The notes beneath the pieces were generated by a model. The model did not search any database. It was not told the DNA's origin and saw only the letters and a list, made by a program, of their open reading frames with translations. Shown here one piece after another: positions 1 through 64,000 of a DNA stretch of 64,000 nucleotides. The first letter of the stretch is position 1. Every line of letters starts with the position of its first letter. Source of the DNA: Candidatus Parcubacteria bacterium (GTDB lineage Bacteria; Patescibacteriota; Minisyncoccia; Phycocordibacterales; JAACPR01); assembly GCA_039805545.1 (NCBI GenBank), contig JBDLUA010000007.1, positions 1,252 to 65,251 on the forward strand, read 5' to 3'. A program made the position numbers and the translations under genes.

Positions 1-1605
1 CATGAAGAAGAGGCAAAGTTTAGTAAAATGCTCGCAACAATTCAAACTGATGTTCCCGTTGAGTTTGATTTAGAAAAAAGTTGGAAAGAGGGTGTTGATG
101 TTGCACGGGTTCAAAAATTGTTTGCAGACCTTGAATTTAGAAGTTTACAAAACAAAGTAAAAGAAATTTTTGGTGGAGATGAAGAGGAAGTTATTCATGA
201 AGAAATAGATCAAAATGTGTTAGAAGAAGCGTCTGTCGCACTTTGGGTTCTCAGGTCTTCACTTACAAATCCTACATATCAAGACATTCTTTCTTTTACA
301 AAAAAGAATACTCTTAAAGACGCATACGAATATATTTTGGAAAGATTAAAGCAAGAAGGTTCAGAAAAGGTATTTTTTGAAATAGAAAAACCTCTCATTC
401 CAATTACAAAAGAAATGTCTGCAAACGGGATAATGCTTGATATTGATTTACTTGAAGAAATTTCAAAAGAATATCATGCAAAAGTTGAAGAAATTTCAAA
501 AAAGATTTTTGAATATGCCGGAGAAGAATTTAATATAAGTTCTCCAAAACAAATGGCAGATATTCTCTTTAATAAAATGAACCTTTCATACAAAGGAATG
601 AGAAAAGGGAAGAGTGGATCTTTTTCTACAAAAGAAGAAGTCCTTCAAAAACTTTTTGACGAGCACCCAATTATCGAAGAGATTTTGAAATATCGAGAAC
701 TTACAAAACTACTTGGAACATACATCGACACTTTCCCAGCAATGATTGGGCTCGATGGACGACTTCGAACAACATTCCTTCAGGCAGGATCAGCAACAGG
801 AAGAATGGCTTCACAAGAACCTGGTCTACAAAACATTCCTGTTAAGAGCGAATTAGGAAGAAGAATTCGAGATGCCTTTGTAGTAAAAAGTAGGTGTAAG
901 TTTGTGTCAGTTGATTATTCACAAATTGAACTTCGACTTGCTGCAATGATGTCTGGAGACGAAAAACTTATTGAAATCTTTAAGAACGGAGAAGATGTTC
1001 ATTCTGGGGTTGCATCATACATGTTTGGAATTCCACAAGATCAAATAACCAAAGAACAACGAAACAAGGCGAAAGTAATTAACTTTGGAATTTTATATGG
1101 AATGGGTGTGAGTGCACTTCAAAAGAATTTGAAGGTTGATAGAAAAGAAGCACAAGAATTTTATAATACATATTTTGAAAAATTTTCCGGACTTGCTCAA
1201 TATCTTGAAGATACAAAAGAGTTTGCAAAGCGAACAGGATATACAAAAACAATGTATGGAAGAAAAAGATTCTTTGATGGAATTCAATCCAAACTTCCAT
1301 TCATAAGAGCACAAGCAGAACGAATGGCAATCAATGCTCCGATTCAGGGAACCGAGGCTGACATTGTAAAACTTGCAATGATTAAAGTTGATGAATTTTT
1401 GACAAAAGAAAAAATGAAAGACAAGATTAAGCTTGTTCTTCAAATTCATGATGAAATTATTTTTGAAGTAGAGGATGAATGTGTTGAATTTGCCCAAACA
1501 CACATTCCTAAAATTATGGAAAAAATTATGGACGATATGGATACGAAAGGGGTTCCGGTTTTGACTGATTGTGAAGTTGGTGTATCTTGGGGAAAGTTAA
1601 AATAG
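1..1605 (+). CDS. polA: DNA polymerase I (family A) polymerase domain, 5'-truncated at window edge
   Basis: Frame is open back to nt 1. Motifs DYSQIELR, finger-helix KAKVINFGILYGMG, and HDEIIFEV identify the Pol A palm/fingers. Confidence 0.9.
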   Translation, partial: HEEEAKFSKMLATIQTDVPVEFDLEKSWKEGVDVARVQKLFADLEFRSLQNKVKEIFGGDEEEVIHEEIDQNVLEEASVALWVLRSSLTNPTYQDILSFTKKNTLKDAYEYILERLKQEGSEKVFFEIEKPLIPITKEMSANGIMLDIDLLEEISKEYHAKVEEISKKIFEYAGEEFNISSPKQMADILFNKMNLSYKGMRKGKSGSFSTKEEVLQKLFDEHPIIEEILKYRELTKLLGTYIDTFPAMIGLDGRLRTTFLQAGSATGRMASQEPGLQNIPVKSELGRRIRDAFVVKSRCKFVSVDYSQIELRLAAMMSGDEKLIEIFKNGEDVHSGVASYMFGIPQDQITKEQRNKAKVINFGILYGMGVSALQKNLKVDRKEAQEFYNTYFEKFSGLAQYLEDTKEFAKRTGYTKTMYGRKRFFDGIQSKLPFIRAQAERMAINAPIQGTEADIVKLAMIKVDEFLTKEKMKDKIKLVLQIHDEIIFEVEDECVEFAQTHIPKIMEKIMDDMDTKGVPVLTDCEVGVSWGKLK

Positions 1606-8710: not shown

Positions 8711-8797
8711 GGAGAGGTGGCAGAGTGGTTGAATGCACCGGTCTTGAAAACCGGAATATCCGAAAGGGTATCGAGGGTTCGAATCCCTCCCTCTCCG
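8711..8797 (+). tRNA. tRNA-Ser (anticodon TGA), type II with long variable arm
   Basis: GGAGAGG acceptor, anticodon loop CTTGAAA, long variable arm, T-loop TTCGAAT. Followed by a terminator hairpin at 8806-8835. Confidence 0.85.
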
Positions 8798-8944
8798 CAA
8801 AAAGAAAAACCGACATATGTCGGTTTTTCTTTTTTGCGGAGAGGAGCAAAGCAAAGCACCTTTCTTTCGTCCTATATAAGCCCTTTATAAACTTTTTCTA
8901 AAATCTTAATTTGCACCATCCTAACCTCTGCTATAATACTTTGT

Positions 8945-11775: not shown

Positions 11776-12062
11776 AAAAAATAAATCTAAAAGTCTATTT
11801 TAAAAAGAGAAAGCAAAGACTTGCGGTGTCTGGAATTTCGCCAACTTTTGATTGGGGCATTATTGTTGGATTTTCGACATTTTTGTTTTTTGTTGGTGTC
11901 GGCTATGCAATTTATTTATATATACAAGTAAACAACGGCTCTTTGTTTGAGGTGGTACAAGATCAAACAGTTCAATATGAAATTAATCACAAGAAAAAAC
12001 AAATAGAACAAAAGGTTCAAATACTTGAAGGTAGAAATTTTGACGAAACGAGTTCAAACTGA
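11772..12062 (+). CDS. Small single-TM protein (pilus-cluster associated?)
   Basis: Overlapping start, one TM helix. Confidence 0.25.
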   Translation: MKKINLKVYFKKRKQRLAVSGISPTFDWGIIVGFSTFLFFVGVGYAIYLYIQVNNGSLFEVVQDQTVQYEINHKKKQIEQKVQILEGRNFDETSSN

Positions 12063-12088
12063 TATTTTAAGGGAACAAACAAACCATT

Positions 12089-12160
12089 GCCCCCTTAGTT
12101 CAATGGATAGAACAGCGGACTTCTAAGCCGTTGATGTAGGTTCGATTCCTGCAGGGGGCA
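12089..12160 (+). tRNA. tRNA-Arg (anticodon TCT)
   Basis: GCCCCCT/AGGGGGC acceptor, anticodon loop CTTCTAA, T-loop TTCGATT. Followed by hairpin terminator AGTCCGGActgcTCCGGACTTTT. Confidence 0.85.
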
Positions 12161-12425
12161 CAAGCGTTAAAAAAGTCCGGACTGCTCCGGACTTTTAGCT
12201 TGTGCCGGCCGCAGCGATGTTGCGATAGCAACCGCGAGGCGGGGTCGCGAGCACTTAGTAGAATTGGAGTGAGCTTGCGAACGAACAATTATACTTAGTG
12301 ACTTGTGACCACATAAAACAGTTCAAATTGAAAGAGTTTACGAAGAAATGAACTTAGTAACTGTGGGACGATTCCTGTATAATTGCAAAACTTTAAAAAT
12401 CTGTTATTCTATATAAACCTTACAA
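12161..12425. repeat. tRNA-downstream structured block R1 (terminator + GC-rich hairpins + ACTTAGT-motif repeats), paralogous to 15198-15455
   Basis: Shares the ~42-nt block GAGTTTACGAaGAAATGAACTTAGTAACTGTGGGaCGATTCC with 15355-15396. ACTTAGTnnnnTnGG occurs three times. Confidence 0.4.
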
Positions 12426-12499
12426 GGGCGATTAGCTCAGTTGGCTAGAGCAGTCCGTTTACACCGGAAAGGTCAGGGGTTCAAGTCCCTTATCGCCCA
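12426..12499 (+). tRNA. tRNA-Val (anticodon TAC)
   Basis: GGGCGAT acceptor, anticodon loop TTTACAC, T-loop TTCAAGT. Confidence 0.85.
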
Positions 12500-12572
12500 C
12501 AAAAATAAAGAGCTCAACACGAAAGTGTTGGGCGATTTATTTTGAGCTTTTGTTTTATGATATACTCTCGAC

Positions 12573-12812
12573 ATGATTGAACAATTTAAAAAACCAAAAG
12601 AAGAATTTACAAAAGAAGAACTTAGAGACATTCTAGAACTTTCAGGAAAGGGTCTGGATGCCAATCTCGGTGATTTAGCGAATACGCTTCTTGAGGAAAA
12701 AGAAAAAGAAGGATTGGATGATAAAGAAATTTTGGAAAGAGCAATGCTTCTTGCAAAAAAGTTGATTTTGGTTGAAGTGAAACAAGCAATAGATGCTTCG
12801 CATTTTGAATAA
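12573..12812 (+). CDS. Hypothetical small acidic protein
   Basis: ORF only. Confidence 0.3.
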   Translation: MIEQFKKPKEEFTKEELRDILELSGKGLDANLGDLANTLLEEKEKEGLDDKEILERAMLLAKKLILVEVKQAIDASHFE

Positions 12813-13554
12813 ATTTTATATGGATATTAAAGTTATTGTTGAAAATTCTAATTACATTATAATCAATAAACCTGCAGGAATCTCAGTCCACAAAAGTGGT
12901 CAACGAGAAGAATATACAATCTCAGACTGGGTTATTGAACATTTTCCTCAAACAAAAGAAGTGGGTGAACCACTTAAAATTTCTAACGGAGAAATAATTG
13001 AAAGACATGGAATTGTACATCGTCTTGATAAAGATACCTCAGGGGCTCTACTCATTGCTTTAACTCAAGAAGCGTACGAATTTTTTAAAAAACAATTTCA
13101 CGATAGAGAAATAAAAAAGAGTTATCGAGCTTTTTTGTATGGAAATCTAAAAGAAGATCACCTTACAATTCAAGAACCAATAGGGAAGCATAAGAAAGAT
13201 TTTAGAAAACGAACCACTGCTCGAAATTCTCGTGGCGAACTCAAACTCGCGATTACTTTTTTTCATGTACTACAAAGAGTAAAGATTGATAATGAACCAG
13301 TGTTGTTTGTGGAGGCACAGCCTAAAACGGGACGAACTCATCAAATTAGAGTACATGCACGATATATGCAACACCCTGTTATTGCAGATACATTGTATGC
13401 ACGATCAAAACCGAAGTTACTTGGATTTAAGCGACTTGCCTTGCATGCATATTCATTGGAATTTAAAGATTTAGACGGTTTTACTCAAAAAATAGAAGCG
13501 GATTTTCCGGATGATTTTAGATATGCACTTTCTCTTGTTGACCGATTGGAGTAG
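12793..13554 (+). CDS. RluA-family 23S rRNA/tRNA pseudouridine synthase
   Basis: HRLDKDTSGALL catalytic-Asp motif and KTGRTHQIRVH motif. An alternative start is the ATG at 12820. Confidence 0.85.
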   Translation: MLRILNKFYMDIKVIVENSNYIIINKPAGISVHKSGQREEYTISDWVIEHFPQTKEVGEPLKISNGEIIERHGIVHRLDKDTSGALLIALTQEAYEFFKKQFHDREIKKSYRAFLYGNLKEDHLTIQEPIGKHKKDFRKRTTARNSRGELKLAITFFHVLQRVKIDNEPVLFVEAQPKTGRTHQIRVHARYMQHPVIADTLYARSKPKLLGFKRLALHAYSLEFKDLDGFTQKIEADFPDDFRYALSLVDRLE

Positions 13555-13606
13555 AGGGGTACTATTAGGAATAGGAATTCGTTCCAAAATTTTCTGGCCC
13601 TGTTTG

Positions 13607-13692
13607 GGTCAGCGACCGCACGCTACCAGATGGATCCGCGCACGCAACAGGAGGGGTAAACCTTAAAACGGTAAAACCTGTTGCGTGCGCGA
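13607..13692 (+). terminator. Long hairpin terminator GCGCACGCAACAGG...CCTGTTGCGTGCGC + T-tract after the rluA-family gene
   Basis: 14-bp perfect stem with a 25-nt loop, followed by GATTTATTTTT. Confidence 0.5.
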
Positions 13693-13737
13693 TTTATTTT
13701 TGACAAGGAGCACTATTTGATGTAAAGTATTTTGGTA

Positions 13738-13935
13738 TGGCTCAGAAAAACCAGCATCAAGTGGGTCGGACCAAGTCCGGCAGAGTTCAGCGCAATGGAC
13801 AACACAAGCAAGGCAAGGAGGGAGGAAGTGTCAAAGCCATTCCTTTCAATCAGTCTGCACGTGTTGGACATCGTGCTTGGGTCTGATTTCACTTCGTCGT
13901 TTCGGGGTGGTCGCGCAAGCGGCCACCCTTTTTCT
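13738..13935 (+). ncRNA. Candidate structured small RNA (GC-rich, promoter-to-terminator unit) upstream of rplS; identity unresolved
   Basis: TTGACA(13702)-17nt-TAAAGT promoter-like site, a ~200-nt segment far GC-richer than the flanks with nested hairpins, ending in terminator GGGTGGTCGCgcaaGCGGCCACCC+TTTTTC. The overlapping 74-aa ORF looks spurious. Confidence 0.35.
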
Positions 13936-13995
13936 TTAAATATTGATAAATTTTAACAACTATGTTAAAGTCTTCCTACTAATAAATTTAATAAT

Positions 13996-14431
13996 CATGA
14001 ACACAGTAATAACTCCAGTAGATATTGCCTCACGAAAAAACCTCGATATGCGAACCGGGGACACTGTTCGAGTATGGCAAAAAATCCAGGAAAAAGGAAA
14101 AACACGACTTCAAGCGTTTGAAGGAATCGTTCTTGCACGAAAACATGGTGCAGAAGCAGGTGCAACATTTACAGTACGACGAAATACTAATGGTTTTGGT
14201 GTAGAAAAAATCTTCCCACTTTATTCTCCAATGATCGATAAGATTGAAATCGTAAAACGATCAAAGACTCGACGAAGTAAACTTTACTATATGCGAGATA
14301 AAGCACTTAAAGAAATCAGTAAACGATTTAAGATGATGTCTGTTAAGTTCTCGACAGAAGATCATAAAGAAGTTGTTCCTGAAGTTGTAGAAGAGGCTCC
14401 AGTAGAAACAGTAGAAGAAAAGAAAGACTAA
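13996..14431 (+). CDS. rplS: 50S ribosomal protein L19 with acidic C-terminal tail
   Basis: RTGDTVRVWQKIQEKGKTRLQAFEGIV matches the L19 core. The start is more likely the ATG at 13996 than 13943. Confidence 0.85.
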
Positions 14432-14444
14432 TATAAAAAGAGAA

Positions 14445-14480
14445 AAGGGGGAGGCCTTCGGCCTCCCCCTTTTCTCTTTT
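14445..14480. terminator. Intrinsic terminator GGGGGAGGCCttcgGCCTCCCCC + T-tract
   Basis: GC hairpin and TTTTCTCTTTT after rplS. Confidence 0.7.
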
Positions 14481-14539
14481 ATAAAAATATGTATAATCAA
14501 AGCACTTATCAAAAACCTCGATAAGAAGTGAATGTGTAT

Positions 14540-14621
14540 GCGCAAGTGGTGAAATTGGTATACACGCACCCTTGAGGTGGGTGTGCCTTCGGGTGTGGAG
14601 GTTCAAGTCCTCTCTTGCGCA
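14540..14621 (+). tRNA. tRNA-Leu (anticodon GAG), long variable arm
   Basis: GCGCAAG acceptor, anticodon loop TTGAGGT, variable arm TGCCTTCGGGTGT, T-loop TTCAAGT. Followed by a long A/T-rich hairpin terminator at 14622-14670. Confidence 0.85.
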
Positions 14622-14746
14622 CTGAAAAATAAAGAGCCAAACACAAAGTGTTCGGCTCTTTATTTTTCAGGAAAGATTAACGAAGTAGGCTTTTCTTTGT
14701 ATTCGATTTGAGGTATTCTTGTTTTTGAAAACCTAAGGTAAAACCC

Positions 14747-15025
14747 ATGAAACGAAATGATAAGGATAAGTTCCTCCAAAAGATCGAGCGAGTTAGAAAT
14801 GCTGCCCTCAAACAGCTTCAAGAAATGGCGGCACTCTACAAACTTCAAGTCAAAGATGATCTTCGGTATCGCACCACCATTGAATTGGTTCATTGGTATT
14901 GCAACGATGCAAAGGAGTTTTCCCGAGAGAGATCGCTAGGGATGTTTGTCGGATTGATTTCTAACCTGCGCCGAATCATTGCCTCTCTTCCTGTTGTGGT
15001 CCTTGAGGACTATTACTCGACATGA
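14747..15025 (+). CDS. Hypothetical protein
   Basis: ORF between tRNA-Leu and tRNA-His. No motif recognised. Confidence 0.3.
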   Translation: MKRNDKDKFLQKIERVRNAALKQLQEMAALYKLQVKDDLRYRTTIELVHWYCNDAKEFSRERSLGMFVGLISNLRRIIASLPVVVLEDYYST

Positions 15026-15040
15026 GGATTGTTTTTTTCG

Positions 15041-15070
15041 AAAGGCGGCCCGAACGGGCCGCCTTTTCTC
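15041..15070. terminator. Intrinsic terminator GGCGGCCCgaacGGGCCGCC + T-tract
   Basis: GC hairpin plus TTTTCTCC. Confidence 0.7.
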
Positions 15071-15122
15071 CTGGACATTTCCCTATAAAATTAGTACTAT
15101 CTTGCTACACAGATGTGTATAT

Positions 15123-15195
15123 GGCGACTATGGTGTAACGGTTAACACAGCGGTCTGTGGATCCGCTGATTCGGGTTCGATTCCCGATAGCCGCC
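15123..15195 (+). tRNA. tRNA-His (anticodon GTG) with encoded G-1
   Basis: An extra 5' G pairs with discriminator C, the tRNA-His hallmark. Anticodon loop CTGTGGA, T-loop TTCGATT. There is one A-C mismatch in the acceptor stem. Confidence 0.8.
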
Positions 15196-15197
15196 CA

Positions 15198-15455
15198 TAA
15201 AAATAAAAGAGATGAATGCGTGAGCATTCATCTCTTTTATTTTAGGAAGGCTTCGGGAATCGAACGGCGGAGGCCCAGGGTCCCTGTGTCTGTGAAGTGA
15301 AACGAAACAGACCTGGGATGGCCGAGCCGCGACCAACGGTACTTAGTGAATGAGGAGTTTACGACGAAATGAACTTAGTAACTGTGGGTCGATTCCACAA
15401 ATATTTTTCCCACACTCTTCTCTAATTATTTTTTTCTTCTGCTATACTATATTCA
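15198..15455. repeat. tRNA-downstream structured block R2 (paralog of 12161-12425)
   Basis: Terminator hairpin, GC-rich nested hairpin CCCAGG...GTCTGT...ACAGAC...CTGGG, and the shared block GAGTTTACGAcGAAATGAACTTAGTAACTGTGGGtCGATTCC. Confidence 0.4.
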
Positions 15456-18194
15456 ATGGAAACAAAACAAAATTTTGAATCTCCTCAACTTACAGAAAAA
15501 ATTTCTAATCTTGAACAAGAACTTGCTTTTTTGCGTTCACAAATTATCGATAAAAAATCAGAGCAGGGCATAGAACAAAAGACTCAAGAAATAATTCAAA
15601 CTATTTCAAATCAAAAACAAGAAGTATATACAGACACTTTTCTTCATACACCAGAACAAACAGATGCAATCACACTTGATTTAAAACCAGAAGCACACGA
15701 CGAAACAATGGCTTCTCTTATTGAAATCATTAAGAAACACGGAATTATTAATGCGATAGAAGTTGTTGCAAAGCTTCAAGATGCTCATATTAATGATGAT
15801 TTTCATAGGTTTTTGGTGGAATATCTCAAAGAAGGATATCCTGTATTCAAAAAAGAATCAGAAGAGACACTTAGACCACTTAAAAGAACTTTGTTTGAAG
15901 TGTTGATTCCAAAAAAAGAACAAACAGGAGAAAATAATCAGGAACACATTCATAAAATGTATTCACTTATTTCAGGACTTCGATCAATTGCGGATTATTC
16001 TGACGAACATATTACGATTGAAATAACAAATCCTGTTGGAGAAAAACAGTTTTCTGTATATGTTTCTGTATATGAAAAAGTTCGAGATATGTTTGAAAAG
16101 CAAATGCTCTCGCTTTTTCCTTCAAGTAAACTTGCAGAACAAAAAAATGATTTTAATATTTTTGTCCCTCTAGGTTCACATTTTGTCTATTCTGCAAAGC
16201 TAAAAGAACTTCCGGTTAAGCCCCTTAAGACAAGTGAGGAATTTCAAGTTGATCCACTTAATACTCTTGTTGGTGTGTTTACAAAACTTGAACAAATGGA
16301 TGATGCTGCGTGTGTACAGTTTGTAATTCGACCAGGAAAAGGATTTTATACAAAAAACTATGCAAAAGCTTTGCCAAAAGTTGAAAAAGGAGAAAAACCA
16401 GATGAGATATACATGAAAGATAAGATGTCTGACAAACTTATCTATGGGACGAACAAGATCTTAAAAGGAATTATTGAAATTGCCGCGTCGCTTCAATCAG
16501 AATCTTCATCTAAGAGTGAAGATAAAAAAATCGATCAGTTTCTCGTTGAAGGACTTCGACAAAAAATTAAGCATGAAATTTATTCTGTAAATATTCGAGT
16601 AGTAACATCGAGTAAAGAGGAGAACAGAGCAAAAGTAATTGCATCTGAAATCAGATCTTCATTTGATCAATTTTCTAATCCGACAGGGAACAGAATTGAG
16701 TGGGTTGAGCACAAAGGAAGTATTAAGAAAGAGTTGAAGAAATTTATCTATCGACAATTTGATATGGAATATGAAATGCCACTTAATATTTCTGAAATCT
16801 CAACAATAATTCATTTTCCTGATGAGAGCAAAGAGACCACTGCACAGTTTAAGCGTCTTGGTATGACTTCTGCTCCTGCACCCTTTAACCTTGAACAAAA
16901 TCAAGGTGTGCTTCTTGGTACAAATGAGCATGCGGGTGAGATTACTAATATTCGGATGCAAAATATGGATAGACTTCGACATATGTATGTAATTGGACAA
17001 ACAGGAACAGGTAAGACAACTCTTTTGAAAAATATGATTATTCAAGATATCAAAAATGGAGAAGGTGTATGTATGATTGACCCACATGGTTCTGATATTC
17101 AAGAAATTCTTGCTGCTATTCCACAAGAACGGCTCGAGGATGTAATTTATTTTGATCCAAGTTACACAGAGCGTCCAATGGGTCTTAATATGCTTGAGTA
17201 TGATGTTCGGTTTCCTGAACAAAAAACTTTTGTAGTGAACGAAATGATGAGTATCTTTAATAAATTGTTTGATATGAAAGTTGCTGGAGGTCCTATGTTT
17301 GAACAGTATTTTCGAAATGCAACAATGCTTGTAATTGATGATCCTGAATCTGGGAATACTCTTCTTGATGTATCTCGGGTGCTTTCTGATCAAAACTTTA
17401 GAAATATGAAGATTTCTAAATGTAAAAATCCAACAGTAGTACAGTTCTGGACTGAGATTGCTTCAAAGGCTGGAGGAGAAGCTTCACTTGCAAATATTGT
17501 TCCATATATCACAAGTAAGTTTGATGTGTTTCTTTCAAACGATATTATGCGACCTGTTATCGCACAAAAGGAATCAAGTTTTGATTTCAGAAAAATAATG
17601 GACGAAAAAAAGATTTTACTCGTAAATCTTGCAAAAGGAAGACTTGGGGACATTAACTCAAATCTTATTGGTCTTATTATTGTAGGAAAATTGTTGATGG
17701 CTGCATTATCTCGGGTCGATTCTCTTGGAAAAGATTTTCCTTCATTTTATTTATATATCGATGAATTCCAAAATATTACAACTGATTCTATTTCGGCAAT
17801 ATTATCTGAAGCCCGAAAGTATAAATTAAGTCTATGTGTTGCTCATCAGTTTATTGCCCAATTACAAGAGAGTATTCGTGATGCTGTGTTTGGAAACGTA
17901 GGAAGTGTTGCTGTATTTAGGGTTGGTTCTGAAGATGCAAAATTTCTTGAATCACAATTTTCACCACGGTTTGTTCAAAAAGATATTATGAATATCGAGA
18001 ACTTTAATTTCTATTTAAAAATGCTTAACGAAGGTGTTCCTGTAGAACCTTTTAATGTAAAACTTCCATCAAAACAAGAGTTTGATCTTAGTAGAGTGGA
18101 AGATATTAAGCAACTCTCATATTTGAAGTATGGGAAAGACAGAAGTGAAGTAGAAGAAGAGATTATGAAAAATTTGAGGAAGGAGACTCTTTAG
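15456..18194 (+). CDS. Large P-loop ATPase of the VirB4/TraC-HerA/FtsK superfamily with an N-terminal coiled-coil/unknown domain
   Basis: Walker A YVIGQTGTGKTT near aa ~515, Walker B LYIDEFQN, and ARKYKLSLCVAHQ...VFGNVGSVAVFRVG resembling the VirB4/DUF87 C-terminal motifs. No N-terminal TM helices. Confidence 0.55.
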   Translation: METKQNFESPQLTEKISNLEQELAFLRSQIIDKKSEQGIEQKTQEIIQTISNQKQEVYTDTFLHTPEQTDAITLDLKPEAHDETMASLIEIIKKHGIINAIEVVAKLQDAHINDDFHRFLVEYLKEGYPVFKKESEETLRPLKRTLFEVLIPKKEQTGENNQEHIHKMYSLISGLRSIADYSDEHITIEITNPVGEKQFSVYVSVYEKVRDMFEKQMLSLFPSSKLAEQKNDFNIFVPLGSHFVYSAKLKELPVKPLKTSEEFQVDPLNTLVGVFTKLEQMDDAACVQFVIRPGKGFYTKNYAKALPKVEKGEKPDEIYMKDKMSDKLIYGTNKILKGIIEIAASLQSESSSKSEDKKIDQFLVEGLRQKIKHEIYSVNIRVVTSSKEENRAKVIASEIRSSFDQFSNPTGNRIEWVEHKGSIKKELKKFIYRQFDMEYEMPLNISEISTIIHFPDESKETTAQFKRLGMTSAPAPFNLEQNQGVLLGTNEHAGEITNIRMQNMDRLRHMYVIGQTGTGKTTLLKNMIIQDIKNGEGVCMIDPHGSDIQEILAAIPQERLEDVIYFDPSYTERPMGLNMLEYDVRFPEQKTFVVNEMMSIFNKLFDMKVAGGPMFEQYFRNATMLVIDDPESGNTLLDVSRVLSDQNFRNMKISKCKNPTVVQFWTEIASKAGGEASLANIVPYITSKFDVFLSNDIMRPVIAQKESSFDFRKIMDEKKILLVNLAKGRLGDINSNLIGLIIVGKLLMAALSRVDSLGKDFPSFYLYIDEFQNITTDSISAILSEARKYKLSLCVAHQFIAQLQESIRDAVFGNVGSVAVFRVGSEDAKFLESQFSPRFVQKDIMNIENFNFYLKMLNEGVPVEPFNVKLPSKQEFDLSRVEDIKQLSYLKYGKDRSEVEEEIMKNLRKETL

Positions 18195-63266: not shown

Positions 63267-63507
63267 AGCACTTACACGATGTTGAATTATTTAAAAAAGA
63301 ACTGTAAGACGGTCTAAAAAAGAGGGTTTTAAACTCACTTCAAAAGACTGCCACCGCAGTCTTTTTTGAAAAAATAAACTCGTGAGTTCGTTGACAATAA
63401 AATATGTGAATTAAGAGTCAAAGTAGTCAATTAATTTTCACGAGAAAATTTGAGACAAGTTAGATAAAAGCTAAGAAAAAAGTTATGTGGTGGTTTTAAG
63501 ATTTCCT

Positions 63508-64000
63508 AATAGGAAATTAAGAGCATATAGTGGATGCCTTGGCTTCTAGAGACGATGAAAGACGTGGTATGGCTGCGATAAGCTTCGGGGAGGTGCCTAA
63601 CAACCTTCGATCCGGAGATGTCTGAATGGGGTAACCCAGCTGAGCAAACCTCAGTTACCCAATCTTGTAAAGAGAGCGGGAGTGAACCTTGGGAAGTGAA
63701 ACATCTCAGTACCAAGAGGAAAAGAAAAAAAGTTCCGTAAGGAAAAGATTTCCTGAGTAGCGGCGAGCGAAATGGAATAAGCCCAAACCGTATGTATTCG
63801 TATATACGGGGTTGTAAGACGATAAGACTCCAGTACTCTATTTCCTACTTCCAGCAATGGAAATAGGGATAAAGTACTGGATAATGGTTACAAATTGATT
63901 AGCTAGTGGAACTTTCTGGAAAGAAAGACCCTAGAGGGTAATAGTCCCGTACGCGAAAGCGAATCAACCATTTTTATTGTTCTTGAGTAGCTCAGGACAT
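63508..64000 (+). rRNA. rrl: 23S ribosomal RNA, 5' portion (continues beyond window)
   Basis: GGATGCCTTGGC, GAAACATCTCAGTACC, and GAGTAGCGGCGAGCGAAA are universally conserved 23S domain I blocks. Confidence 0.9.

Follow-up and report, generated by a model that had tools for sequence, protein, structure and literature searches.

An intact and a decayed member of an apparently undescribed family of structured non-coding elements behind tRNA genes in Candidatus Parcubacteria

The 64,000-nt stretch analysed here (hereafter, the window) belongs to contig JBDLUA010000007.1 of a Candidatus Parcubacteria bacterium and has a guanine-plus-cytosine (GC) content of 35.7%; the best protein homologues are likewise labelled Parcubacteria/Paceibacteria. 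ARAGORN and Rfam confirmed the calls of a tRNA-Arg(TCT) gene at 12089-12161, a tRNA-Val gene at 12426-12500 and a tRNA-His(GTG) gene at 15124-15196 (58.7 bits with the Rfam tRNA model), and the first and the last of these are each followed by a block of ~260 nt. Here, we report that the two blocks are one decayed (tRNA-Arg) and one intact (tRNA-His) member of a single family of non-coding elements, apparently undescribed (no description was found in the searchable literature). Each block is a separate insertion, with its own tRNA on one side and a partial copy of this tRNA on the other; the target genes and all block features located below lie on the forward (+) strand.

Both blocks open with a strong hairpin and a T-run after the tRNA, contain GC islands of 60-62% against a background of ~33%, and fold better than shuffled sequences (z = -3.8 for the tRNA-Arg block and -5.5 for the tRNA-His block). 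An earlier note on this DNA had described these terminator and GC-rich hairpins together with a conserved 42-nt core, and window search, shuffling and blastn bear it out. Exactly two stretches of the window, 12334-12375 and 15355-15396, match the core GAGTTTACGA(A/C)GAAATGAACTTAGTAACTGTGGG(A/T)CGATTCC; they agree at 40 of 42 positions (blastn E=6e-14), and none of 100 shuffles contained a match. The note had placed the latter copy exactly and the former 3 nt off (12337-12378). It had also correctly counted the motif ACTTAGT three times in the tRNA-Arg block (12253, 12293 and 12352) and twice in the tRNA-His block (15341 and 15373); across the window this motif is not enriched (9 observed versus 8.0 expected), yet five of the nine occurrences fall within the two blocks. 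The core is not a free-standing motif: it consists of the 3′ end of what we call a type IV element plus the first 7 nt of a T-loop-derived repeat, and it looked conserved across both blocks because tRNA-Arg and tRNA-His share CGATTCC.

The anatomy of the family is the same in every true copy. The tRNA gene is followed by a trailer and a terminator made of an A-run, a hairpin and a T-run, then by an antisense copy of the last ~19 nt of that tRNA (termed anti), a GC-rich arm (P2), a hairpin (P3) and, finally, a direct copy of the same tRNA that starts exactly at T-loop position C56 (direct repeat DR2). Anti and DR2 are the 5′ and 3′ strands of a helix, P1, and their pairing closes a three-way junction. 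The sequence of P1 is fully replaced between copies, its 3′ strand always repeating the T-loop and T-stem of the adjacent upstream tRNA, while the junction of anti and P2 reads GAAAGAC or GAACGGC and P3 ends in GTGAC, CTGCGC or GTGGGT. The element measures ~175 nt (range ~130-200 nt), is non-coding, and always lies on the tRNA strand directly behind the tRNA gene.

This anatomy emerged from three independent sources, namely loci found by synteny, a genome scan and a metagenome scan. Syntenic loci in relatives (denoted below by L numbers) were found via homologues of the downstream VirD4-like ATPase, with protein identities of 97% (L001), 81% (L004), 75% (L100) and 73% (L005); looking up the exact RluA protein of the window yielded no match. 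Scanning a 20-nt P2 pattern over 185,579 species genomes and JGI metagenomes gave 7 and 12 true low-GC matches, respectively; about 56 further matches in high-GC genomes were dismissed as chance on the basis of their GC content and a missing 5′ motif. Altogether ~30 copies were recovered from related Paceibacteria and Nomurabacteria contigs, and a covariance model built for the element (R1) scored 27 copies above 60 bits in the first locus set, plus three in L100. No copy was found among 2.9 million viral contigs, either by two pattern scans of IMG/VR or by a covariance-model search, which gives no support to a viral origin.

The association with tRNA 3′ ends, which the earlier note had proposed for both blocks as paralogous structured modules and had suggested testing, is borne out by the relatives: all true copies lie behind tRNA genes or decayed tRNA remnants. 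They occur behind at least 12 tRNA species, among them His, Val, Arg(TCT, GCG, CCT), Lys, Ala, Leu, Cys, Tyr and Ser(GGA, TGA). Read from C56, DR2 matches its own tRNA at a mean of 13.9 of 18 positions versus 8.8 +/- 2.1 for other tRNAs, and anti matches its own tRNA with a mean of 13.6 versus 9.4 +/- 2.1. Hence an intact tRNA stands at one end of the element and a displaced partial 3′ copy in direct orientation at the other, as in Islander-type islands. Traces are present at three of the seven window tRNAs (His, intact; Arg, decayed; Ser, with a 10-nt remnant of anti at 8835-8844), and the tRNA-Lys, Arg(GCG), Val and Leu genes are free of them. At tRNA-Ser(TGA), the terminator palindrome (8789-8844) reaches 10 nt into the acceptor strand (CCTCTCCGCA ... 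TGCGGAGAGG at 8835-8844) and resembles what is left of an element whose intact counterparts occupy this tRNA in L017 (5114-5267) and the syntenic place in L004 (2722-2870).

In the copy behind tRNA-His, an intrinsic terminator hairpin between an A-run and a T-run (15200-15243, by minimum free energy (MFE) folding) precedes the intact element at 15246-15405, which model R1 recognizes with 105.1 bits (E=1e-28). The 5′ strand of P1 (anti, 15246-15262) is the antisense of the tRNA-His 3′ end, GGCTTCGGGAATCG versus the reverse complement of CGATTCCCGATAGCC, with a 13-nt inverted match to 15175-15187. P2 (15266-15328) is nearly invariant in the alignment of the family (A4, folded with RNAalifold) and comprises the helices GRC/GYC and GGCC/GGCC, an unpaired YAGGGU and a tip helix GUCY/RGAC. 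P3 (15331-15390), of type IV, carries ACTTAGT on its 5′ strand (15341) and its 3′ strand (15373), and its distal part and 3′ half account for most of the 42-nt core at 15355-15396. DR2 (15390-15396) reads CGATTCC, which equals C56 to C62 of tRNA-His and is decayed beyond, so that P1 of this copy, GGAATCG...CGATTCC, encloses the P2 arm and the P3 hairpin. At 15383-15399, the 3′ end of this copy also offers an alternative, T-arm-like hairpin, TGTGG GTCGATT CCACA, followed by a T-rich run; it was flagged by a terminator scan and is specific to the tRNA-His copy.

Behind tRNA-Arg(TCT), decayed copies of the element are stacked on one another. After the terminator hairpin (12169-12196, MFE fold), a proximal element at 12191-12324 is still recognized by R1 (24.7 bits, E=4e-5); it retains a remnant of anti (GTGCCGGCCGCAGCGATG, 12202-12219), a variant or decayed form of P2, and an intact type II P3 (12243-12310, with ACTTAGT at 12253 and 12293), and its tRNA copy is deleted down to a trailer remnant, ACATAAAAC, at 12311-12319. 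Beyond it lies an older, distal remnant (12334-12368), the 3′ part of a type IV P3, which constitutes the first 35 nt of the core and is homologous to 15355-15389 and to L004 2826-2861. The tRNA-Arg-derived direct repeat CGATTCCTG (12369-12377), equal to C56 to G64 of tRNA-Arg, follows, with TATAAT directly next to it at 12378-12383. Compared with the window, L001 shows a 149-nt indel between 38-nt repeats in this block, as a stack of related remnants would be expected to do.

The Rfam and structure comparison proposed by the earlier note yielded no Rfam family, but did reveal a covarying three-way junction. RNAalifold predicts the P1-P2-P3 junction from an alignment of 20 copies (A4), in which 95.8% of cells are standard pairs, versus 28-49% with slid partners; both partners have changed in 19 of 35 pairs, and values as high as these occurred in 0 of 500 shuffles. 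Seven of nine P1 pairs covary and 10 of 11 P3 pairs show compensatory changes. In P2, a P2a pair alternates between A-U (13) and G-C (6) and the tip pair (columns 46/64) between C-G (10) and U-A (8), the rest being invariant (GGCC/GGCC, CCC/GGG, unpaired YAGGGU and a GA/GA internal loop). Variants whose distal P2 differs are L017 5114-5267, L100 8004-8146 and window 12191-12324. Of the four P3 types (I to IV), only II and IV contain ACTTAGT, each stem strand carrying the motif and its occurrences pairing with one another. Within P2 and P3, G.U combinations (~16 cells) greatly exceed C.A (1 cell), and therefore the fold is strand-specific: selection acts on the tRNA-sense strand, in the form of RNA or of single-stranded DNA (ssDNA). 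An alternative P2 register, GGCCCAGG/CCUGGG, was rejected on the grounds that the tip helix covaries and that copies with a long tip need GUCUGU/ACAGAC, and a hammerhead-like junction was rejected by the junction lengths. Rfam 15, whose families include tRNA, tmRNA, group I/II introns, self-cleaving ribozymes, 6S, SRP, Y RNA-like, HEARO and GOLLD/ROOL, gave no match to the elements: at gathering threshold no hit overlapped them, and with looser limits none appeared on 12000-15600 (E<=10) or on L069 and L039 (E<=5). Neither do the elements resemble the tRNA-like domain of tmRNA or viral tRNA-like structures: ARAGORN reports only the real tRNAs and nothing tRNA-like in the elements, and the acceptor part of DR2 is decayed in most copies.

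Taken together, tRNA 3′ end, terminator and anti constitute a single extended palindrome whose arms measure ~40 bp each. When whole read-through transcripts were folded, the MFE structure paired anti with the real tRNA end and the 5′ acceptor strand of the tRNA with DR2; thus, two nearly equivalent folds, anti:DR2 and anti:tRNA end, are available. In none of 16 copies does anti fit DR2 better than it fits the real tRNA (three rows were re-anchored by eye). Where DR2 is perfect, anti is imperfect (L001, L006, L011 and L075), and where DR2 has decayed, anti can match at 18-19 of 20 positions (L042, L027, L057 and L004), which suggests that anti is kept, or re-templated, against the tRNA.

A filled and an empty site can be compared at tRNA-Val. 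In L001, a 97%-identical strain, this gene carries a 173-nt element flanked by a perfect 22/22 repeat, CAAGTCCCTTATCGCCCACAAA, which spans C56 to 4 nt past the tRNA end; in the window the same site, at 12482-12503, is empty (alignment A2 with L001). The insertion comprises only these 173 nt, with no open reading frame (ORF) and no other DNA, and brings its own terminator, the native one remaining behind DR2. Both alleles recur in other samples, empty in L099 and filled in L098. L099, a Logan contig, starts inside the tRNA-Val T-stem (position 1) and ends at the last base of tRNA-His (2727), and such breaks at both insertion points are expected where repeats or mixed alleles occur.

Several observations bear on the spread of the element, which is multi-copy within genomes. 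The terminator segment appears to travel with it in other genomes, given that in L007 and L017, from the same metagenome-assembled genome, two different tRNA-Arg genes are followed by a trailer, terminator, anti and P2 that are near-identical (the P3 types differ). Truncated copies are stacked behind tRNA-Arg(TCT) in five genomes (the window, L001, L004, L042 and L100). L100 carries copies behind tRNA-His, tRNA-Val and tRNA-Leu, and its relatives at 63% and 54% identity have none. Five copies lack an upstream tRNA and possess a tRNA-Ala-type DR2 and a decayed GGTTC...TCCACA remnant; for one of them (L010), a real tRNA-Ala with an 18/18 match lies 5 kb upstream, past a ThiF/arginase/GNAT segment that contains no integrase. 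Since the upstream sequence of these copies is not a tRNA 5′ part, we rejected the idea that they mark a T-loop intron or a split tRNA. Between two copies with a decayed tRNA (L052b and L069b), terminator and anti are 100% identical, P2-P3 ~91% and the tRNA remnant ~79%. Separately, one terminator family is common to the window tRNA-Val (12503-12545) and tRNA-Leu (14623-14668) and to the tRNA-Ala of L011 (~1180-1230, minus strand), with the consensus AATAAAGAGCyyAACACgAAAGTGTTsGGC..TTTATTTT; terminators behind tRNAs may have been delivered by these elements themselves.

We consider it probable, taking the parts of this interpretation jointly, that the family is a miniature, non-autonomous element that integrates into tRNA genes and carries a structured RNA or ssDNA fold. 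Exchange of DNA within the segment from the T-loop to the 3′ end would depend on a recombinase provided in trans; the element would bring its own terminator, later insertions would displace earlier copies downstream, and repeat-mediated deletions would trim them. The P1-P2-P3 fold would then serve as cargo or as a recognition module, most likely as an RNA made by read-through from the tRNA promoter and possibly as a folded ssDNA site. For the L001 tRNA-Val element, the excised form would have a junction in which the P3 end, the tRNA copy and the element's own terminator are joined as CTGTGAC, CAAGTCCCTTATCGCCCACAAA and TTTTAAACC. Regeneration of the target, a displaced fragment and newcomers that push older elements outward are established for islands in tRNA genes (tDNA islands; PMC4383910; bioRxiv 10.1101/2020.12.28.424599).

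A number of points weigh against this interpretation. No recombinase was found in or near any copy: by Pfam, window positions 1-32 kb are all housekeeping, with no integrase or transposase, and in the clustering of ORFs around 20 loci the recurrent neighbours were syntenic housekeeping genes and a pilin-like N-terminus, with no recombinase. A double-stranded circle of ~195 bp is a poor substrate for a classical integrase, and a protein integrase leaves unexplained both the presence of one family at 12 or more tRNAs and the carried antisense copy of the target. No promoter-like site was found between terminator and element, and any transcript would presumably be made by read-through. Covariation cannot separate RNA from folded ssDNA, and integron attC sites were earlier picked up as 'RNA motifs' (PMC5737381). 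Finally, the tRNA-Val polymorphism could reflect precise repeat-mediated deletion or allele exchange by homologous recombination instead of a new insertion. As for a helper, islands with large serine recombinases (Resolvase, Recombinase and Zn_ribbon) abut tRNA/element loci in L001 (1-3110, with Fic) and L100 (1-1480, with YafQ), and share an end motif of ~60 nt, GTGACA..CACTGCAATA..TGTCAC; the homology between L001 and the window begins at window position 8884, 86 nt after tRNA-Ser. We treat a large serine recombinase as a possible helper, that is, as a lead and not as evidence.

Among other explanations, the earlier note's three options included a small RNA and att-like scars of integration beside tRNA genes, both in the right direction, with details wrong on three points. 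The cores are not attL and attR of a ~3-kb integration: the interval between them holds tRNA-Val, RluA, L19, tRNA-Leu and tRNA-His, is housekeeping in content and is syntenic in L001, L004, L005 and L100, which rules such an island out. A regulatory role, with ACTTAGT as iterated protein-binding sites or the block as a promoter module for the next transcription unit, would fit the position of both window blocks upstream of such a unit and the TATAAT abutting the tRNA-Arg-derived repeat; however, the motif is near-palindromic stem sequence that only P3 types II and IV possess, the two strands of a helix each bearing it, the downstream genes differ among copies and are unrelated, making the link to them incidental, and position is fixed to the upstream tRNA rather than to the downstream gene. 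An array of binding sites is thereby excluded, and the regulatory role, already contradicted by type I and III copies devoid of ACTTAGT, is extremely improbable. It is very unlikely, too, that the copies are functionless leftovers, attachment-site arms of large tRNA-integrating islands or prophages. Such scars would be in keeping with the use of the same tRNA ends by other insertions (the 5-kb segment between tRNA-Ala and element in L010), with the serine-recombinase islands adjoining tRNA/element loci in L001 and L100, and with a second repeat family of ~95 nt (E2, below) at tRNA ends. Yet the polymorphic tRNA-Val insertion is the 173-nt element alone, the fold is under selection, as its compensatory changes and strand-specific G.U pairs show, no copy was found in the viral contigs scanned, and the island end in L010 has no P2/P3-like sequence. 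A family of host small-RNA genes is a fairly unlikely alternative with more in its favour. The ends of the P1-P2-P3 RNA would imitate the acceptor/T-stem minihelix of the neighbouring tRNA, so that RNase P, RNase Z and the CCA-adding enzyme would trim and stabilize it, and the genes would spread with tRNA duplication and ordinary homologous recombination. Consistent with this, P2 is almost invariant in sequence, unpaired bases included; the element is conserved while the adjacent tRNA remnant decays; young copies (L001) have a P1 that extends to the acceptor strand, with A73 left unpaired; DR2 in L001 and L006 is succeeded by another terminator, just as a genuine tRNA would be; and tRNA-specific lineages exist for Val (L001, L005 and L100) and His (the window, L047 and L100). 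In many copies, however, the outer DR2 is decayed (L042, L027 and L004) and no acceptor-like end is left, neither ARAGORN nor Rfam sees anything tRNA-like, near-identical left halves stand behind different tRNAs in one genome, and truncated stacks and strain polymorphism look like the work of a proliferating element.

The remaining alternatives assign a guiding role to anti. In one of them, anti would pair with the tRNA gene or its ssDNA form and thereby specify the target together with both cut positions, the 22 nt of the duplication would correspond to the guide-target duplex (~19 nt), and the invariant P2 would be the handle for the enzyme; the folded attP of CTXphi and integron attC sites offer an analogy for the ssDNA form. 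Anti (~19-20 nt) is indeed close in length to the repeats (18-22 nt), the junction always falls between T55 and C56, and one scaffold is found at 12 or more tRNAs, always with the cognate anti; DR1 is native to each tRNA in L007 and L017, which are identical from the trailer onward. The better or equal fit of anti to the real tRNA, its 18-19/20 match in several old copies with decayed DR2, and the strand-specific fold point the same way. Against this stand the lack of a candidate enzyme linked to the element and the freshest insertion (L001 tRNA-Val), where anti has 3 mismatches in 20 and the repeats match 22/22. Moreover, P1 or the long hairpin with the tRNA end normally sequesters anti, whose perfect form in old copies is also explicable by template switching in the palindrome of tRNA end, terminator and anti. 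To our knowledge no system works in this way, and we regard guided integration as doubtful at best. A related idea, which we also hold to be unlikely, if slightly less so, is that the element is a protein-less 'address label' whose ~19-nt antisense pairs with the tRNA gene or the tRNA and directs an unlinked enzyme that holds P2, the ~20-nt duplication being the footprint of the duplex; in a variant, the RNA may co-opt RNase P, RNase Z and the CCA-adding enzyme by way of an acceptor/T-stem borrowed from each tRNA.

The preferred interpretation, a miniature integrating element, places the family alongside tRNA-integrated elements such as Islander islands, prophages and the tycheposons of Prochlorococcus (PMC4383910; bioRxiv 10.1101/2020.12.28.424599). 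As in tDNA islands and tycheposons, the tRNA gene is split in or after the T-loop and stays complete, a displaced partial tRNA marks the far end, and successive integrations displace older elements outward, so that partial tRNAs and degenerate remnants accumulate in arrays. In contrast, those islands span kilobases, encode an integrase now or once did, and are tied family by family to one or a few tRNAs, whereas the element has ~175 nt, no ORF, an antisense copy of its target, a three-way junction and at least 12 tRNA species as targets; an integrase of the Islander kind was found neither in the 173-nt insertion, which holds no ORF, nor in window positions 1-32 kb nor among the recurrent neighbours.

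In integron attC sites and the attP(+) of CTXphi, inverted target-like copies pair within one strand to imitate a duplex target. The element shares this pairing with them, together with a structure kept by covariation over sequence, strand specificity, and an ORF-less make-up of the kind that can be mobilized in trans; it differs in targeting a tRNA gene rather than attI or dif and in having a sequence-invariant internal P2, in contrast to the variable centre of attC. The attC boxes RYYYAAC/GTTRRRY are absent from the element, which has no conserved AAC/GTT and whose junction lies between GGTT and C, not between G and TT; its outer P1 ends are tRNA-specific (e.g. GTGCCCTCTGCAGG... / ...CCTGCAGAGGGCAC), and no link to IntI or Xer emerged. 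The IS200/IS605 family and its palindrome-associated (PATE) derivatives are small, have hairpins near both ends, insert in one orientation 3′ of a short fixed sequence and are mobilized in trans. The element resembles them in size, end hairpins, one orientation 3′ of a fixed GGTT (T-loop) and one-strand structure, and departs from them in that it has ~19 nt of target complementarity versus 4 nt, a copy of the target flanks it, and, unlike PATE ends, its left (terminator) and right (P3) hairpins are unrelated in sequence. No TnpA or TnpB was found near it in the contigs compared, which are parts of genomes.

Correia/NEMIS, ERIC and BOX repeats, which are like miniature inverted-repeat transposable elements (MITEs), measure 100-200 nt, have terminal inverted repeats constant within a family, and duplicate 2-10 bp at many target sites. 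The element is likewise 100-200 nt long, multi-copy, intergenic and hairpin-forming (co-transcription with neighbours is a feature of those repeats), but its 'terminal repeats' are copies of the particular target tRNA, and its site is always the T-loop/3′ end. Thus the P1 strands vary with the tRNA, with seven of nine pairs covarying, and the flanking repeat is 12-22 nt of tRNA. Guide-bearing RNAs include the IS110 bridge RNA, the TnpB/IscB omega RNA and the homing CRISPR RNA (crRNA) of type V-K CRISPR-associated transposons (CAST), the last of which targets tRNA genes. Like these, the element combines a conserved structured scaffold with a segment complementary to the insertion target; guide RNAs differ in being encoded beside their protein, in holding their guides in loops or free ends rather than in a closing helix, and in having no ~20-nt duplication of the paired stretch. 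No adjacent recombinase or nuclease of the kind that accompanies bridge RNA, omega RNA or CAST crRNA was seen, the flanks of the element being tRNAs and housekeeping genes.

The family accounts for GC-rich 'junk' that follows tRNA genes in a large and little-understood lineage of bacteria and explains breaks of metagenome contigs at tRNA ends, and a covariance model and a clear anatomy are now available for annotating such sequence. The combination, in ~175 nt, of a target copy, an antisense copy, an invariant arm and a portable terminator at a dozen tRNAs is unlike known tRNA-integrating elements. Should anti or the fold contribute to targeting, the element would represent a highly compact integration system that can be retargeted; the 'address label', if true, would be a new programmable nucleic-acid-guided insertion mechanism in bacteria of the Candidate Phyla Radiation (CPR); and a functional transcript would make the family a new, widespread class of non-coding RNA in that radiation with tRNA-derived ends.

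Other repeats and structured regions were noted along the way. E2, the second repeat family, is ~95 nt long (AGAAATTTAAGGAG...GCGACAAAAGACTTAGCAGAGTCGACC), lies directly after tRNA 3′ ends (CCACA / ... / CACAGAAA) and forms a P3-like hairpin with CTTAG; copies were found in L100 (5210-5306, 1618-1712, 7861-7955 and 9444-9536), L004 (9103-9197, minus strand) and L052 (3071-3162), and none in the window. On the minus strand of L039, ~200-320 nt upstream of its element, a promoter-like TTGACA..TATGCT precedes a GC-rich region of ~150 nt with a strong terminator at its end (GGGGCTGTC plus a T-run); this region, with no Rfam match, is probably an unannotated small RNA. In the window, a non-coding stretch of ~52% GC after RluA (13555-13700) contains a 15-bp hairpin, CGCGCACGCAACAGG...CCTGTTGCGTGCGCG, followed by a T-run, and also has no Rfam match. 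At 13737-13930 lies a conserved ORF for a very basic 49-aa product (also in L001, L098 and L099) with its own terminator (13904-13929) and, again, no Rfam match. Lastly, the 5′ part of the 23S rRNA at 63507-64000 contains an insertion of ~59 nt relative to the bacterial model near position 312 (window ~63828-63886), and insertions of this kind are typical of rRNAs in the CPR.

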